Shown here: piece by piece, positions 686 to 24,719 of the stretch
Layout of the letters: each line of letters starts with the position of its first letter
Numbering within the stretch: the first letter of the stretch is position 1
Assembly (NCBI GenBank): GCA_035254945.1
Contig: DATFAE010000022.1
Coordinates: 7,691-71,690 of the forward strand
DNA from: Arthrobacter sp.
GTDB taxonomy: Bacteria > Actinomycetota > Actinomycetes > Actinomycetales > Micrococcaceae
DNA length: 64,000 nucleotides
Direction of reading: 5' to 3'
The notes under the pieces: model-generated
Database searches by the model: none
The model's input: the letters and a program-made list of their open reading frames with translations, nothing else
Told to the model about the DNA's origin: nothing
Translations under genes and position numbers: made by a program

Positions 686-2833
686 GTGACTACAGAGAAT
701 TTTGACAGTGCAGTGGACAGCTCGGCGTCCCTTGAGGACCGGATCCTGGGCGGCCTGGACGCCGAACAGCGGGAGGTTGCGAGCACACTGAACGGCCCGC
801 TGTGCGTGCTGGCCGGGGCCGGCACAGGCAAGACCCGGGCCATCACGCACCGGATTGCGTACGGCGTGCACTCCGGGGTCTACAGCCCGCAGCGGCTCCT
901 TGCCGTGACGTTCACCGCCCGCGCCGCCGCGGAAATGCGCAGCAGGCTGCGGGACCTCGGCGTCGGGAACGTCCAGGCCCGTACATTCCACGCGGCCGCG
1001 CTCAGGCAGCTGCAGTTCTTCTGGCCACAGGCCGTGGGCGGTACACTGCCCAATCTCCTGGACCACAAAGCCCAGATGATTGCCGAGGCCGCCCGCCGCC
1101 TCCGTCTCAGCACGGACCGGGCTTCCATCCGGGACCTCGCTTCCGAAATCGAGTGGGCAAAAGTCTCCATGCTCACCCCTGCCAACTACCTCGAGAACGC
1201 CCAGGGCCGCGGAACCCCCGGCGGGTTCGACCTCACGGCAGTGGCCCGGGTCTTCCAGTCCTACGAGGACGTCAAAACCGACCGCAACGTCATCGACTTC
1301 GAGGACGTCCTGCTGATCACGGTCGGCATCCTGCAGGAGGACCAGAAAGTCGCGGCCACGGTGCGCGAACAGTACCGCCACTTTGTGGTGGACGAATACC
1401 AGGACGTTTCCCCGCTGCAACAGCGCCTCCTTGAACTGTGGCTCGGCGGCCGCGATGAACTCTGCGTCGTCGGTGACGCCAGCCAGACCATCTACTCCTT
1501 CACCGGCGCATCGCCCAAGCACCTGCTGGGGTTCAAGGCCAGGTATCCCGAGGCCAACGTGGTCAAACTGATCCGGGACTACCGCTCCACGCCGCAGGTG
1601 GTCAAACTTGCCAACGACCTCCTCGCGGGGCGTCGAAGCGGCGGACCGGTGGCGGACGCTGCATGGGCTGCGCCCCTGCAGCTGGTGGCCCAGCGGCCGG
1701 CAGGGCCGGTTCCCCAATTCACGGAATGTTCCGACGACGAGGCCGAGGCAGCCACGGTCGCGCTCAAGATCAAGGGACTGCTCGACGCCGGCACGCCGGC
1801 AAGCCAGGTAGCCGTCCTCTTCCGCACTAACGGGCAGTCCGAAGCCTACGAGCAGGCCCTGGCCGCCGCAGGCATTGGCTACCAGCTGCGGGGCGGTGAG
1901 CGGTTTTTCGCGCGCAAGGAGGTCAGGGACGCCATTCTCCAACTGCGTGCAGCCACCAGGGCGGTGGCCGAAACTGCCACGCCGGAGCCGTTGGGGCAGC
2001 TGGTCCGCGACATCGTGGCCTCCCTGGGCTACACCGACTCCGCTCCGCACAATGGCGGTGCCCTGCGGGAACGCTGGGAATCATTGGCGGCACTGGTTGC
2101 ACTGGCCGACGAGCTGGTCCAGGTCAGGGGAGAGCAGTTCAGCCTCGCCGACTTCGTCAATGAGCTGCAGGAACGCTCACTGGCGCAGCATGCCCCAACG
2201 GTCCAGGGTGTCACCCTGGCTTCGCTGCACGCGGCCAAGGGCCTGGAATGGGATGCCGTGTTCCTCGTTGGCCTCAGCGAAGGGCTGATGCCGATCTCTT
2301 TCGCGGACACCCCGGAGTCGGTGGATGAGGAGCGGCGGCTCCTGTACGTCGGGATCACCCGCGCCCGGGAGCACCTCTTCCTGTCCTGGTCAACGGCCCG
2401 GACACCCGGCGGCCGGGCCAACAGGAAGCCGTCCCGCTTCCTTGACGGTCTTCGGCCGGACTCGGTGGCCAGCTCCTCAGCCCGGGGCAAGGGGCCGGCG
2501 CCCCGCCGGAAAGCCGCCAAGCCTGCCACGTGCCGGGTCTGCGGCAGCATGCTGGCCAGCGGCGCCGAACGCAAAGTCGGGCGCTGCAACGACTGCCCTC
2601 CCAGCTATGAGGAACAGACGTTCGACGCCCTGCGGCAATGGCGCAAGGACGTCGCCCTCTCGGCCGAGGTCCCGGCCTTCGTGGTGTTCACTGATGCCAC
2701 GCTGACCGCCATTGCCGAGGCCCGGCCCTCGTCGCTGGAGGAACTGGCCACCCTCGCTGGCGTCGGCCCGTCCAAACTCGAACGCTATGGTGAGGACGTC
2801 CTGAAGGTCCTCGTCGAAAGCACCACGCTGTGA
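686..2833 (+). CDS. uvrD2: ATP-dependent DNA helicase UvrD2 (SF1, tetracysteine motif, HRDC)
   Basis: AGAGTGKT Walker A, VVDEYQD, GDASQTIY, RDYRST, SLHAAKGLEW, ERRLLYVGITRAR; C-terminal CxxC..CxxC and HRDC-like tail. Confidence 0.93.
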   Translation: MTTENFDSAVDSSASLEDRILGGLDAEQREVASTLNGPLCVLAGAGTGKTRAITHRIAYGVHSGVYSPQRLLAVTFTARAAAEMRSRLRDLGVGNVQARTFHAAALRQLQFFWPQAVGGTLPNLLDHKAQMIAEAARRLRLSTDRASIRDLASEIEWAKVSMLTPANYLENAQGRGTPGGFDLTAVARVFQSYEDVKTDRNVIDFEDVLLITVGILQEDQKVAATVREQYRHFVVDEYQDVSPLQQRLLELWLGGRDELCVVGDASQTIYSFTGASPKHLLGFKARYPEANVVKLIRDYRSTPQVVKLANDLLAGRRSGGPVADAAWAAPLQLVAQRPAGPVPQFTECSDDEAEAATVALKIKGLLDAGTPASQVAVLFRTNGQSEAYEQALAAAGIGYQLRGGERFFARKEVRDAILQLRAATRAVAETATPEPLGQLVRDIVASLGYTDSAPHNGGALRERWESLAALVALADELVQVRGEQFSLADFVNELQERSLAQHAPTVQGVTLASLHAAKGLEWDAVFLVGLSEGLMPISFADTPESVDEERRLLYVGITRAREHLFLSWSTARTPGGRANRKPSRFLDGLRPDSVASSSARGKGPAPRRKAAKPATCRVCGSMLASGAERKVGRCNDCPPSYEEQTFDALRQWRKDVALSAEVPAFVVFTDATLTAIAEARPSSLEELATLAGVGPSKLERYGEDVLKVLVESTTL

Positions 2834-20494: not shown

Positions 20495-21361
20495 TTAGGT
20501 GCTGAGCGTCGCGGCAGCAACTGTGGGGAACGTCGGGGAGGCCGAGCCTCCCACGGGCTCCACGGTGATGCCCAGTGCTGCAGCGGAAGAGATGCCCTTC
20601 ACCACGGCAGGCTTGGACAGCGCCGCTTCGTCCATCAGGCCCTGCGAAACGGGCGCAGAACCGTCCTTGGGGATCAGCCACATCTGGTACACCTTGCCGG
20701 CCGGCGGCGCGGGAACCCCGTTCATCTTGACCACAACGGCGTCCCTGGACGGTGAAATCAGGACCGTCGCGGTTCCACCGGCGGAAACGGGCACCGACGC
20801 TTCACGGACATCGTCTGCCCGGACCACCTGGTTCAGCGGATCATTCTGGTCCGCAATATAGGCGCCAACGCCCACACCGCCAAGGGCGATCACAGCCGCG
20901 GCGGCGACGCCGGCGAGCCACCGGCGCGGACCTGCTTGCCGGCGTCGTTCGTCCCTGCGCTGCCGGGCTGCGGCAAGATCGTCGCCCTCCGCCAAGGGGG
21001 CGGGCTGGTGCAGCGGCGCGGCCGGAGCTGCCTCCTGCCCATCTGCGGGGGCCAGTCCGGAACCCTGTGCCGGGAGCTGCGCCACGATGCGGGCAAAGAG
21101 GTCCGACGGCGGCTCTTCCTCGGCCGTGAACGTCACGGCCAGCGTCTCCCGTGCCTGGCGCACACGCTCCTGGAACGATCCCCGCTCAGCCTCCGGGGCG
21201 GAGGAGATGTATTGGTCAATGGCCGAGCGCTCGGCGTCGGTCACCGCATCCAGGGCGTACAGTTCCGCCAGGTCCACTGCACGGCCTGATTCAAGGTCGG
21301 CCGGAACCGTCTCGCCGAAGGTGCCCCGGCGGCTGCCTCCCTGATTGTTCATTTCTGTCAT
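20495..21361 (-). CDS. rskA: Anti-sigma-K factor RskA
   Basis: LAELYALDAV..ER, TM helix WLAGVAAAAVIAL, C-terminal VYQMWLI..ALGITVEPVGGS..PT; 1 nt downstream of sigK. Confidence 0.88.
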   Translation of the reverse strand: MTEMNNQGGSRRGTFGETVPADLESGRAVDLAELYALDAVTDAERSAIDQYISSAPEAERGSFQERVRQARETLAVTFTAEEEPPSDLFARIVAQLPAQGSGLAPADGQEAAPAAPLHQPAPLAEGDDLAAARQRRDERRRQAGPRRWLAGVAAAAVIALGGVGVGAYIADQNDPLNQVVRADDVREASVPVSAGGTATVLISPSRDAVVVKMNGVPAPPAGKVYQMWLIPKDGSAPVSQGLMDEAALSKPAVVKGISSAAALGITVEPVGGSASPTFPTVAAATLST

Positions 21362-21362
21362 C

Positions 21363-21971
21363 TCAACTCACCCCCAAACAGGTCTTCAAGCGGATCAGTC
21401 CATCGCGGATGCGGGACTTGATGGTGGGTACTGCCGCATTCAGCCGTTCCGCGACCTCCCGGTAGGTGAGCCCGCCGTAATAGGCAAGCCGGACAGATTC
21501 CTGCTGCGTATCGGTCAGTGTTTCCAGGCAGCGGACCACGGCCTCTGCCTCGAGCTTGCTGCCCACCTCATCGGACACGGAATCGTGGTCGATCTCCTGG
21601 CTGCTCGCCCCATAACGGGCTTCGCGGTCCGTGGAGGACTGCGAGGACCGGACTTTGTCCACCGCCCGCCTGTGCGAGATGGTCATCAGCCAGGACAGGG
21701 CACTTCCGGCGTCGGGGTTGAACTTCGCGGCGTTCTGCCAGACCTGGATGAACACCTCCTGGGTGGTGTCCTCGCTGAGCTCGGGATCGATCAGGACCCT
21801 GCGCGCCATGCCGAACACCCGGCGGGAGGTCAGCTGGTAGAACTCTGCGAACGCATCCTGGTCGCCATGGGCAATGCGGCCAAGCAGTGTTGCAAGACGC
21901 TGGCTGATGTCGGACGGCGAGTCTGTCACGGCTGCAGGGGCCTCAGAATTTGGCGCGTTGGGAGTTTCCAT
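21363..21971 (-). CDS. sigK: ECF sigma factor SigK
   Basis: GDQDAFAEFY, SEDTTQEVFIQVW, WLMTISHRRAVDKVRS, LAYYGGLTYREVAERL, TIKSRIRDGL; two Cys (VRCL, KTCL); RBS GGAGGTG. Confidence 0.9.
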   Translation of the reverse strand: METPNAPNSEAPAAVTDSPSDISQRLATLLGRIAHGDQDAFAEFYQLTSRRVFGMARRVLIDPELSEDTTQEVFIQVWQNAAKFNPDAGSALSWLMTISHRRAVDKVRSSQSSTDREARYGASSQEIDHDSVSDEVGSKLEAEAVVRCLETLTDTQQESVRLAYYGGLTYREVAERLNAAVPTIKSRIRDGLIRLKTCLGVS

Positions 21972-22123: not shown

Positions 22124-22151
22124 ATTCGTGCCAGGCATGGTTACGGATTGG
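22124..22151 (-). promoter_or_regulatory. SigK-type autoregulatory promoter
   Basis: Minus strand CCAATCC-16 nt-CGAAT, resembling the mycobacterial SigK CATCC/CCGAA elements, upstream of sigK. Confidence 0.6.
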
Positions 22152-22210: not shown

Positions 22211-22230
22211 CAGGTCAGGTCAGGTCAGGT
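22211..22230. repeat. (CAGGT)4 pentanucleotide tandem repeat spanning the trmL stop codon
   Basis: caggtcaggtcaggtcaggt read directly. Confidence 0.9.
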
Positions 22231-22692
22231 CCTGGCGCCGGCGAAGCCTTGTTGCCGCCAGGCCTCATAAACTGCGATGGAGGCAGCATTCGCAAGGTTG
22301 AGCGACCGAAGGGCCGGAAGCATGGGCAGCCGCACCGTGGAGGTCACGTGGGGGTCCTGCTTGACGTGTTCGGGCAGCCCGACGGATTCCTGGCCGAACA
22401 TCAGGACATCACCGGGCTGGTAGGCGATGTCCGTGTAGCTGGCCGTTCCGTCCGAGGTGAACGCATACACATGCTCCGGCCGGAGGGCGGCCCAGGCATC
22501 CTCGATGCTCTTATGCACTGTCACCACTGCGAGGTCGTGATAGTCCAGGCCTGCCCGGCGGAGCTTCGCATCGGAGAAGTCGAAGCCCAGCGGTTCCACC
22601 AGGTGCAGCTCGGCGCCGGTAATGGCTGCCAGCCGGATGGCGTTACCGGTGTTGCCAGGAATTTCAGGGGAGTGGAAGAGGATGCGGAACAC
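22225..22692 (-). CDS. trmL: tRNA (cytidine/uridine-34 2'-O)-methyltransferase TrmL (SPOUT)
   Basis: PEIPGNTGNAIRL, LRRAGLDY, FGQESVGLP, RSLNLANA; TAGGAT -10 six nt before GTG. Confidence 0.93.
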   Translation of the reverse strand: MFRILFHSPEIPGNTGNAIRLAAITGAELHLVEPLGFDFSDAKLRRAGLDYHDLAVVTVHKSIEDAWAALRPEHVYAFTSDGTASYTDIAYQPGDVLMFGQESVGLPEHVKQDPHVTSTVRLPMLPALRSLNLANAASIAVYEAWRQQGFAGART

Positions 22693-22714: not shown

Positions 22715-23674
22715 TCAGTGCATGCCCCGCAGGAGCCTGGCGAGCACGGACACGTTGACGGTGTTGGGTGCCGGGCCCGAGGAGAGGAACTGCTTGAGGC
22801 CCCGGACCAGCCCGGCAGCATTCACCACCTGGACAGTCTCGAGGGCACCCGCTGATCTTCGGTGGCGGTCGATCACCGGCTCATGCAGGTTCCCGTCGGG
22901 GCTGTGCACCACCGTCCAGCCTGTGACGTTCAGTTCAGGGAAGATGTCCTGCATGGCACGGACCACGTGCGCCAGCTGCGGAGGAGGGATGGAACGCCCG
23001 CCGTGATTAAGGGTGCGGCCGTCCCAGGCGTAGGCACCCTTGGGCAGGAGCATGGACCCGATGATCGCCAGGCGGTAGCCGGACAGCAGCGCATGATCGA
23101 TATGGCTGTTGTCCGCCGGTGACTGCAATCCGTTGATCAGCCGTGCGGCCGGGATGGCAGGCAGGACCTGGCGGCTGATCAGCTGCACAGTCCGCATTTC
23201 ACGCTGGATGCGTGCCTCAGCGCCGAAGATGCCGCGTTTCCGCGGCATGCCGTGGACCTGTTGGCTGGCCTGGGTGAGGGGGATCAGAGGCACCGTGCCG
23301 GCGCTCTCGAACTCCGCAGCGTCATAGGGCGGCACGTAGACAGGGGCGTCGCCGGCGGTGTTGCGGGGCGTGTTGGGACGGTGGACCGTGGCGGACGCGT
23401 GACTTCCGGCCGCCGGCGCGTCAAAGTGCGGACCGGCATCTCCGTTGCCGGAACCGCCGGTACCGGCGGCGTAGGAACGGTCGTAGGCGTTCCTGCGCGT
23501 GGGATCGATCAGCGTCTCGTAAGCCGCTGTGACACGCCGGAACGCGGCGGCGTCGCCACCATGATCGGGGTGTGCCCGGCGTGCCGCGCGGCGATAAGCA
23601 ACTTTGATCTCCTTCTCGGTGGCTGTCACGGCGACGCGGAGCACCTGGTAATGGGAGTTGCTGCTCTCGGTCAA
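22715..23674 (-). CDS. J-domain protein fused to a degenerate NERD/PD-(D/E)xK-like domain
   Basis: HYQVLRV..EIKVAYRRAARRAHPDHGG..YETLIDP..R..YD J-domain; C-terminal INGL..IDHALL..IIGSM..YAWDG; TTG start after RBS AAAGGA. Confidence 0.75.
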   Translation of the reverse strand: MTESSNSHYQVLRVAVTATEKEIKVAYRRAARRAHPDHGGDAAAFRRVTAAYETLIDPTRRNAYDRSYAAGTGGSGNGDAGPHFDAPAAGSHASATVHRPNTPRNTAGDAPVYVPPYDAAEFESAGTVPLIPLTQASQQVHGMPRKRGIFGAEARIQREMRTVQLISRQVLPAIPAARLINGLQSPADNSHIDHALLSGYRLAIIGSMLLPKGAYAWDGRTLNHGGRSIPPPQLAHVVRAMQDIFPELNVTGWTVVHSPDGNLHEPVIDRHRRSAGALETVQVVNAAGLVRGLKQFLSSGPAPNTVNVSVLARLLRGMH

Positions 23675-23741
23675 GCACTTGTCCTTTTCGTTAGTGTGGC
23701 CGGTCCACGGCGGCAGGCTGGGCCCATCGTCAGGTAGCCCC

Positions 23742-23764
23742 AGTTTAACGGCCCATTCTGACAA
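23742..23764 (-). promoter_or_regulatory. PafBC / RecA-NDp-type DNA-damage promoter
   Basis: Minus strand TTGTCAG-AATGGGCCGT-TAAACT fits TGTCRG-N10-TANNNT exactly. Confidence 0.65.
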
Positions 23765-23810
23765 CGTCCGCGGCGGCGGCCGGGGTTCCCGCGGCTGGCA
23801 TAATCAGCCC

Positions 23811-24719
23811 ATGATGATCGCCGTTGCCGTCAATCCCCGGGCATCCTCCGGGTCCCGGACGCATGCCGGCGCGCAGGCGGCTGACTACTTCCGGGCTGCA
23901 GGGGCCGACGTCCTGGAGCTGCGGGAACCCGGGTTCGCCCCGCTGGCATCAGCCGTGGAGCGGGCGCTCGCCGGCGGCCTGGATGCCCTCGTTGTGGTGG
24001 GCGGGGACGGCATGGTGCACCTCGCCGTGAACGCGCTGGCCGGCGCCGGATCCCGCGTGCCGCTCGGGATCGTACCCAGCGGGACCGGAAACGACGCTGC
24101 CCGGACGCTGGGACTGCCGTTGAACGACGTCGACGCTGCCTGCCGGAGAATCACCGCCGGCATGGCCACGGGCGGACGCGCCTTTGACCTGGGCCTGATT
24201 ACTGCGGACGGGGTCCCCCGCTGGTTCGCCGGGGTGCTGTCAGCGGGCTTTGACGCCGCTGTCAACGACCGCGCGAACGGGTGGCGCTGGCCGCGTGGCA
24301 ACGCCCGCTACAACCTTGCGATGCTCCGGGAACTGGTGACGTTCCGCGCCATCGAATATACGGTGACGGACTACACGGAAACAGGCGGCGGAGACAGCTG
24401 GCAGCAGGGGGCGATGCTTGTTTCCGTCGCCAACGGCCAGTCAATTGGCGGCGGGATGCGGATTACCCCGGATGCCCGGGTCGACGACGGGATGCTTGAC
24501 CTGTTTGTTGTCAGCCCGCTGTCCAGGGCACGCTTCCTGGCCGTGTTCCCGAAGGTTTTCAGCGGCCGGCATGTCGGGCATCCGGCGGTGGAGATCCGCC
24601 GCGTACGCAAGGTGCGGCTGTCCGCCCCCAGCGTCGTGGCATACGCCGACGGCGAACGGATCGGGCCGCTTCCGCTCACGGTTGAAGTGGTTCCGGGTGC
24701 CGTCCAGATCCTGGCATAG
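23811..24719 (+). CDS. Diacylglycerol kinase family lipid kinase (YegS/Rv2252-like)
   Basis: AVNPRA, VVGGDGMVH, GTGNDAARTL, GFDAAV, YADGE; CATAAT -10 six nt before ATG 23811. Confidence 0.88.
   Translation: MMIAVAVNPRASSGSRTHAGAQAADYFRAAGADVLELREPGFAPLASAVERALAGGLDALVVVGGDGMVHLAVNALAGAGSRVPLGIVPSGTGNDAARTLGLPLNDVDAACRRITAGMATGGRAFDLGLITADGVPRWFAGVLSAGFDAAVNDRANGWRWPRGNARYNLAMLRELVTFRAIEYTVTDYTETGGGDSWQQGAMLVSVANGQSIGGGMRITPDARVDDGMLDLFVVSPLSRARFLAVFPKVFSGRHVGHPAVEIRRVRKVRLSAPSVVAYADGERIGPLPLTVEVVPGAVQILA

Follow-up and report, generated by a model that had tools for sequence, protein, structure and literature searches.

J-domain proteins decide where Hsp70 works, and to our knowledge a client is known for only a handful of the specialised J-proteins of bacteria. 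In class C (type III) J-proteins, such as CbpA and DjlA of Escherichia coli, a J-domain carrying an HPD motif is followed by a C-terminal part unrelated to it, which determines where DnaK is recruited; CbpA is a DNA-binding J-protein. The NERD domain family was reportedly described by Grynberg and Godzik in 2004. It corresponds to PF08378 and belongs to the PD-(D/E)xK superfamily (PMC3424549). SmdA, a membrane-anchored morphology factor of Staphylococcus aureus, functions in cell division; several of the residues conserved in NERD are missing from its NERD-like domain, and it has no known nuclease role (PMC9040797). Here we describe a gene, hereafter the J-gene, in a 64,000-nucleotide (nt) stretch of an Arthrobacter sp. 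draft genome of 367 contigs (assembly GCA_035254945.1, contig DATFAE010000022.1, positions 7,691 to 71,690; the whole stretch is referred to as the window). It encodes a 319-amino-acid (aa) protein in which a J-domain is fused to a domain derived from NERD nucleases.

Like the class C proteins, the J-gene product pairs an HPD J-domain with an unrelated C-terminal module, but here a NERD-derived PD-(D/E)xK fold takes the place of a membrane anchor or of a CTD I/II domain for client binding. We consider it probable that the protein is a stress-regulated DnaK adaptor, co-transcribed with a neighbouring trmL-like gene, and that a basic nuclease fold, no longer catalytic, binds its client. Specialised J-proteins that carry a targeting domain have been described before, as have NERD domains and each of the two promoter classes discussed below. 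New are the division of this family into two branches (one active and carrying a hydrophobic insert, the other dead and lacking it), a perfectly conserved promoter of the extracytoplasmic function (ECF) sigma factor type, and the demonstration that a match to the PafBC (RecA-NDp) DNA-damage promoter fails a matched conservation control. A literature search found no paper describing a J-domain/NERD protein; the family is annotated in databases only as 'J domain-containing protein', and the fusion is seen in automatic cluster names. If our reading is right, the fusion would be a neat example of how a nuclease fold can be converted to targeting.

The N-terminal region is matched by Pfam DnaJ (PF00226) at 61.1 bits (E = 1.1e-16; curated cut-off 27.8 bits). 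An AlphaFold2 (AF2) model built with a 49-sequence alignment of the family shows the four-helix J fold (residues 8-12, 20-34, 42-56 and 58-72) with a predicted local distance difference test score (pLDDT) of ~97. The HPD motif (H35-P36-D37, codons at 23564-23572) is intact, lies between helices II and III, and each of its residues is shared by 90% or more of the 49 aligned family proteins. When the full-length model was submitted to Foldseek, the top PDB matches were all J-domains, CbpA structures among them, with a template modelling (TM) score of ~0.8 on the target. Neither a Gly/Phe region nor a zinc finger is present in the protein. The linker behind the J-domain varies in length across the alignment and is of low confidence or disordered over residues 71-100 (pLDDT 44-65), and its tail packs against the C-terminal domain. 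By these features the J-domain looks functional.

For the C-terminal domain, no match to PF08378 was obtained with the J-gene protein itself, even at E ≤ 10, and scans with Pfam and NCBIfam returned the J-domain only. Exhaustive phmmer searches aligned the C-terminal part with longer proteins at E-values down to 1e-44. PF08378 was matched by 15 of the 49 family members, and 8 of 10 long relatives exceeded the curated Pfam cut-off for NERD. Comparison of a profile of the C-terminal domain with canonical stand-alone NERD proteins of the same genus by hhalign gave a probability of 94.5% (E = 8e-8), the homology spanning the core helix and the strands that follow it. In this alignment E158 falls on the glutamate of the NERD 'GE' motif, D193-H194 on 'DH' (I192-D193-H194, at 23093-23101, on LDH), and G206-S207-M208 (23051-23059, within I204-I205-G206-S207-M208 at 23051-23065) on D-A-K. 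The AF2 model of the domain alone (pLDDT 94, predicted TM score 0.90) shows the expected alpha-beta-beta-beta-alpha-beta order of elements. Judged by the sequence and profile searches, we regard the homology of the domain to NERD, and hence to the PD-(D/E)xK superfamily, as solid. The protein departs from the NERD family in the absence of a direct PF08378 match, in having G-S-M for D-x-K, in its N- and C-terminal extensions and in the J-domain itself.

A first-pass annotation of the window, made from the sequence alone, had described an intact HPD motif and a NERD-like C-terminal nuclease domain, apparently inactive, that keeps IDH but has IIGSM where (D/E)xK is expected. The Pfam and hhalign results bear out each of these points and, because hhalign pairs GSM with DAK, the residue mapping was correct.

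The loss of catalytic residues extends beyond this one protein. The family comprises a long form (about 400-550 aa), in which a hydrophobic insert separates the J-domain from NERD, and a short form (about 290-370 aa) without it; we read the insert, without use of a predictor, as membrane-spanning. Within the 49-protein sample, the full E-D-D-K set is kept in 14 of the 21 proteins of the long-form clade, whereas none of the 26 short proteins has the lysine. H257 is conserved in 100% of long forms versus 32% of short ones, and the other catalytic positions have drifted in the short clade, with E replaced by Q, A, H or R, D by A, G, H or P, and D/E by G, N, S or T. Constraint on the catalytic site is thus relaxed in the short forms, which argues that the short clade is a pseudo-nuclease branch in which loss of D-x-K is common to all members. 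An alternative is that the C-terminal domain has remained active as a nuclease, with substitute residues doing the work, and the retention of E158, D193 and H194 in the J-gene protein would agree with it. We hold this to be very improbable, given that a glycine replaces the acidic residue of D-x-K in this protein, that the lysine is missing from every short protein sampled and that E, D and H257 vary freely within the short clade.

Full-length matches to the short form were obtained in 89 of 121 Micrococcaceae genomes, representing 27 of 38 genera; in the other sampled families of the order, matches covered the N-terminal J-domain part of the query only. Among the genomes searched, the J-domain/NERD-like protein is by this measure confined to the Micrococcaceae. 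PADLOC gave no defence-system match for the J-gene protein or its intact relatives. Outside the window, the long relatives P0136, P0139, P0150, P0168, P0170, P0193 and P0197 combine a J-domain, the hydrophobic insert and a NERD domain with E, D and DxK intact. Long intact relatives occur in some Arthrobacter, e.g. A. humicola, and may be active, membrane-tethered nucleases coupled to DnaK.

The start of the J-gene is the TTG at 23674, so the putative PafBC-type promoter discussed below sits in the non-coding 5' extension of the longer open reading frame (ORF) that is called mechanically at this locus. Upstream of the J-gene, GGGAACC-N17-CGTTG is found with exact spacing in 110 of 110 orthologous regions of the genus (80/80 and 30/30; 100 distinct sequences). 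Conservation is about 90% or higher at every motif position and 30-70% across the spacer; these counts, like those of the GTC core given below, come from related genomes and are not independent. In Corynebacterium glutamicum, the promoters that sigma-H and sigma-E both read have an experimentally established consensus, GGAAC-N17-18-cGTT; dnaK (GGAACA-N16-CGTT), dnaJ2 (GGAACA-N17-CGTT), clgR and sigB are among the targets, and sigma-E and sigma-H of Mycobacterium tuberculosis recognise similar -35 features (PMC10012870). Written in the same way, the J-gene element is GGAACC-N17-CGTT; it resembles the dnaJ2 promoter in sequence and spacing, and both drive genes of the chaperone system. Unlike in C. 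glutamicum, dnaK in this genome has HAIR-like repeats and no such promoter, and sigma recognition at the J-gene is assigned by motif.

The promoter that conservation picks out upstream of the J-gene and trmL is thus, by its motif, of the sigma-E/sigma-H stress class and not of the PafBC type. Transcription from it would start near 23756, and a downstream promoter with a -10 element only follows. The genome encodes a SigH/RshA pair. Since the conserved promoter belongs to this class, expression would be expected to rise under heat, thiol-oxidative or envelope stress, and the promoter thereby indicates which stresses and which mutants to examine.

The first-pass annotation had instead assigned the gene to a PafBC-type DNA-damage promoter, TTGTCAG-N10-TAAACT, and had read the product as a damage-induced adaptor; under that explanation, PafBC would induce the J-gene upon DNA damage and DnaK would be delivered to damaged DNA or nucleoprotein complexes. 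The box is present (23742-23763) and fits the consensus determined in vivo, tGTCgg(N10)tA(N3)T, down to the GTC triplet, which is strictly conserved and is read by PafB (PMC8635444). As in PafBC promoters, the -10 hexamer has no -35 partner, and no canonical sigma-70 -35/-10 pair was found upstream of the J-gene. PafBC itself is encoded as one 689-aa open frame with two WYL domains (G000:C238:21868-23088, minus strand), a natural fusion as reported for Arthrobacter aurescens (PMC6789036). Strict boxes lie directly upstream of recA, uvrB, dnaX, sbcD, uvrD/pcrA, a DnaQ-like exonuclease gene and an SF1 helicase gene, from which PafBC-type promoters evidently work in this genome, and the leader of about 60 nt is shared with recA and the helicase gene.

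Counts and scores do not settle the matter. The J-gene box is the sole TGTCRG-N10-TANNNT match in the window, where chance alone would give 0.16 and one or more appeared in 16 of 100 shuffles, so that it stands weakly above chance. Genome-wide there are 23 strict matches versus about 11 expected (extrapolated from the shuffle rate), i.e. about half may be fortuitous. In a weight matrix of 14 confident sites the J-gene box scored 12.2 bits, which lies inside the leave-one-out range (8.2-29.3) but under its mean (19.5) and is equalled or exceeded at 76 genome positions. This intermediate score is not decisive in either direction.

Conservation separates the two cases. In the same 30 genomes of the genus, recA has the strict box upstream in 29 and the GTC core in 30, whereas the J-gene has them in 2 and 4, respectively; among 80 species representatives the J-gene figures are 8 and 16. 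The C, R and G positions of the box are only about 40-50% conserved in the genus. Six of the seven closest species keep the box, which favours PafBC control; the seventh reads TGACAG. The distance between CGTT and TANNNT-GG varies (14-17 nt in 58 regions, 27-29 in 25 and 38-44 in 10), and the GTC core is found in 11 of 42 sequences with TANNNT at the PafBC spacing versus 23 of 58 without it. Because the core is no commoner at that spacing, the hexamer travels with the ECF element and not with the -10 hexamer, which, on these alignments, is the opposite of what PafBC sigma adaptation requires. The base after CGTTG is T in about 80% of sequences, so the first three letters of the supposed PafBC hexamer, T-G-T, come from CGTTGT; the look-alike would arise where this tail meets CAG, 10 nt from TAAACT. 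Unlike at recA, then, the box is not conserved among orthologues and overlaps an ECF -10 element that accounts for half of its upstream hexamer. No SOS box was found near the J-gene.

The PafBC-like box of the J-gene is most likely fortuitous. Of the first-pass claim, the adaptor role remains plausible and the PafBC promoter logic does not survive the conservation control. We think it unlikely that PafBC-dependent damage induction operates in this lineage as a recent, lineage-specific overlay, and damage induction with delivery of DnaK to damaged DNA seems similarly doubtful as the principal explanation. The case is a caution for motif-based regulon prediction, in that a perfect consensus match upstream of a plausible gene, in a genome that uses PafBC, nonetheless failed the control.

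Strict boxes elsewhere in this genome (G000) lie on contigs C207, C263, C59, C78, C213, C165, C178, C22 (at 7264) and others. Further box-preceded genes are nudC, a thiL-like gene, a DUF1003 gene and an M4 peptidase gene, and the box-preceded SF1 helicase is a 1244-aa protein with an RNase-H-like domain. In about half of the 23 boxes a start codon follows 5-7 nt after the -10, so these genes would be leaderless.

In the stress-regulated reading that we prefer, the protein would be an Hsp70 adaptor and not an enzyme. The dead nuclease fold would act as a targeting or client-binding module, and the J-domain would then switch on the DnaK ATPase at the bound client or site. Nucleic acid or nucleoprotein would be the most probable ligand of the fold, because both the fold and its charge (the domain is strongly basic, with an isoelectric point of 10.3) point that way; we put this client forward tentatively.

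The dead NERD domain might alternatively be a protein-binding or localisation module, with the J-domain remodelling a protein client, e.g. in the envelope or division machinery. SmdA provides the precedent, since its NERD-like domain also lacks canonical catalytic residues and is functionally important outside nuclease activity (PMC9040797). The two are likened by description, and SmdA is membrane-anchored, has no J-domain and is found in Staphylococcaceae only. A protein client would also agree with the apparently membrane-spanning insert of the intact paralogues, with a promoter class that includes the envelope-stress factor sigma-E, and with the conserved residues of the short clade, which besides R178 and R201 are for the most part structural Gly, Pro and Trp. 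The short form, however, has no such insert, the basic charge of its domain fits poorly with this explanation, and the J-gene is neither inside nor beside a division or cell-wall cluster. No partner emerged, the prediction with TrmL scoring 0.00. We judge a protein client unlikely, though it is the main alternative to nucleic acid or nucleoprotein.

Several results weigh against the adaptor as we propose it. The PDB matches of the C-terminal domain in Foldseek are individually weak and insignificant (E 0.02 or worse, TM ≤ 0.39 on the query), although many of the top 50 are proteins that we take to be PD-(D/E)xK nucleases (R2 endonuclease, SfsA, AF1548, Hjc, Can2, Cdn1, McrC, RecU and a cap-snatching endonuclease); a PDB sequence search with the C-terminal profile returned nothing meaningful. 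Two predicted complexes, one pairing the NERD-like domain with a dimer of TrmL and the other a homodimer of the domain, both scored 0.00, values that are in themselves neither support nor evidence against. As to regulation, the genome's own SigH promoter reads GGGAAT-N18-GTT, unlike the J-gene motif, and the SigE gene could not be pinned down in the genome. The ECF motif occurs in the genus and a few neighbouring genera and is absent upstream of orthologues in most other genera. In 13 genomes of the genus the strict extended motif was not enriched elsewhere (0-5 versus 0-4 control matches), so no regulon is visible; a wider search for one was unreliable owing to the crude gene model. A look for RNA runs of this organism found none listed, and metatranscriptome contigs of a relative yielded no start site. 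Co-regulation of the J-gene with dnaK was considered and is not supported, as the region upstream of dnaK has no GGAAC..GTT motif.

In a further scenario, this lineage would carry two overlapping, base-sharing promoters, the ECF promoter and a newly arisen PafBC promoter, on a Micrococcaceae-specific dead-NERD Hsp70 adaptor that targets nucleic-acid or nucleoprotein clients. We regard this combination as quite improbable. If true, proteotoxic or envelope stress and DNA damage would converge on a single short piece of DNA.

The coordinates of the features are collected in Table 1. The first-pass annotation placed a gene at 22715-23764. A gene is indeed there, on the minus strand, but that span is the mechanical ORF and is too long, the real coding sequence being 22715-23674. 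The context AAGGA-N6-8-TTGACC is kept in 80 species of the genus, and both the length and the sequence of the DNA further upstream vary. Annotated database homologues are 311-321 aa long, and the names of those nearly identical to the J-gene protein point to a Pseudarthrobacter/Arthrobacter of the Micrococcaceae. The 90 bases 5' of the TTG that the mechanical ORF counts as coding are intergenic, and belong to a stretch common to the J-gene and a divergent DagK/YegS-like gene whose ATG is at 23811.

Table 1. Features of the J-gene locus, in positions of the window
Feature	Position	Strand	Basis and remarks
trmL-like SpoU methyltransferase gene	22225..22692	-	22 nt 3' of the J-gene; Pfam SpoU_methylase, E = 1e-29
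Coding sequence, J-domain/NERD-like protein	22715..23674	-	319 aa, TTG start, TGA stop; homologue lengths and conserved start context
C-terminal NERD-derived PD-(D/E)xK-like domain, residues 111-319	22718..23344	-	hhalign, PF08378 matches of relatives, AF2
Linker, Gly/Ala/Pro-rich, residues 73-110	23345..23458	-	AF2 pLDDT; alignment
J-domain, residues 8-72	23459..23653	-	Pfam DnaJ, AF2, Foldseek
Shine-Dalgarno sequence AAGGA	23682..23686	-	7 nt 5' of TTG; from sequence; kept across the genus
-10 hexamer TAAACT (TANNNT), no matching -35	23742..23747	-	sequence; TANNNT-GG in most orthologous regions
TGTCAG, look-alike of the PafBC '-26 element'	23758..23763	-	10 nt upstream of TAAACT
Putative ECF (sigma-E/sigma-H class) promoter GGGAACC-N17-CGTTG	23762..23790	-	conservation; GGGAACC 23784-23790, CGTTG 23762-23766

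The SpoU-type neighbour is read as trmL from its Pfam match and its size. It adjoins the J-gene in 26 of 30 family-level loci, because of which we consider that the two probably form an operon, and no terminator-like site was found between them. On the other side of the J-gene, the DagK/YegS-like gene looks leaderless, with an extended -10 element, TGGCATAAT (23796-23804), 6 nt before its ATG (window 23796-23813, plus strand); this element stands back to back with the -35 of the J-gene's ECF promoter.

Upstream of dnaK, which is truncated by a contig end (G000:C198:4150-4423), two HAIR-like inverted repeats (AAGTTGAG...CTCAACTT) lie around a TTGACA/TAAAGT promoter. This arrangement suggests that dnaK is under HspR control rather than served by an ECF promoter.

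Candidate readers of the J-gene promoter were sought among the sigma factors of the genome. None of the 19 loci matching sigma-70 region 4 is an ECF gene with GGAACC..CGTT upstream. The adjacent SigK-like ECF factor (21363-21971) was rejected as the reader, because it has a different conserved promoter of its own. That promoter, CCAATCC-N16-CGAAT (window 22124-22151, minus strand), is found genus-wide upstream of the SigK-like gene and the RskA anti-sigma gene (20495-21361), and a second conserved element, TATGCT, lies just before the start of the SigK-like gene. The motif presumably resembles the mycobacterial SigK consensus, and looks like SigK-type autoregulation. A second ECF sigma gene (G000:C29, locus L111, about 2140-2180, minus strand) is paired with a zinc-binding anti-sigma factor of membrane-spanning appearance, and its mechanical ORF contains TGAACC-N16-CGTC. 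The motif is probably an autoregulatory promoter, and its position would place the true start at an ATG about 100 nt downstream. Lastly, a second orthologous GGGAACC-N17-CGTTG occurs at L212:1501-1529 and in L217 (genomes G125 and G124, respectively), at the 3' end of a membrane-protein gene and about 175 nt in front of a gene for a GT4 glycosyltransferase; in some species it may mark an additional target of the sigma factor that reads the J-gene promoter.

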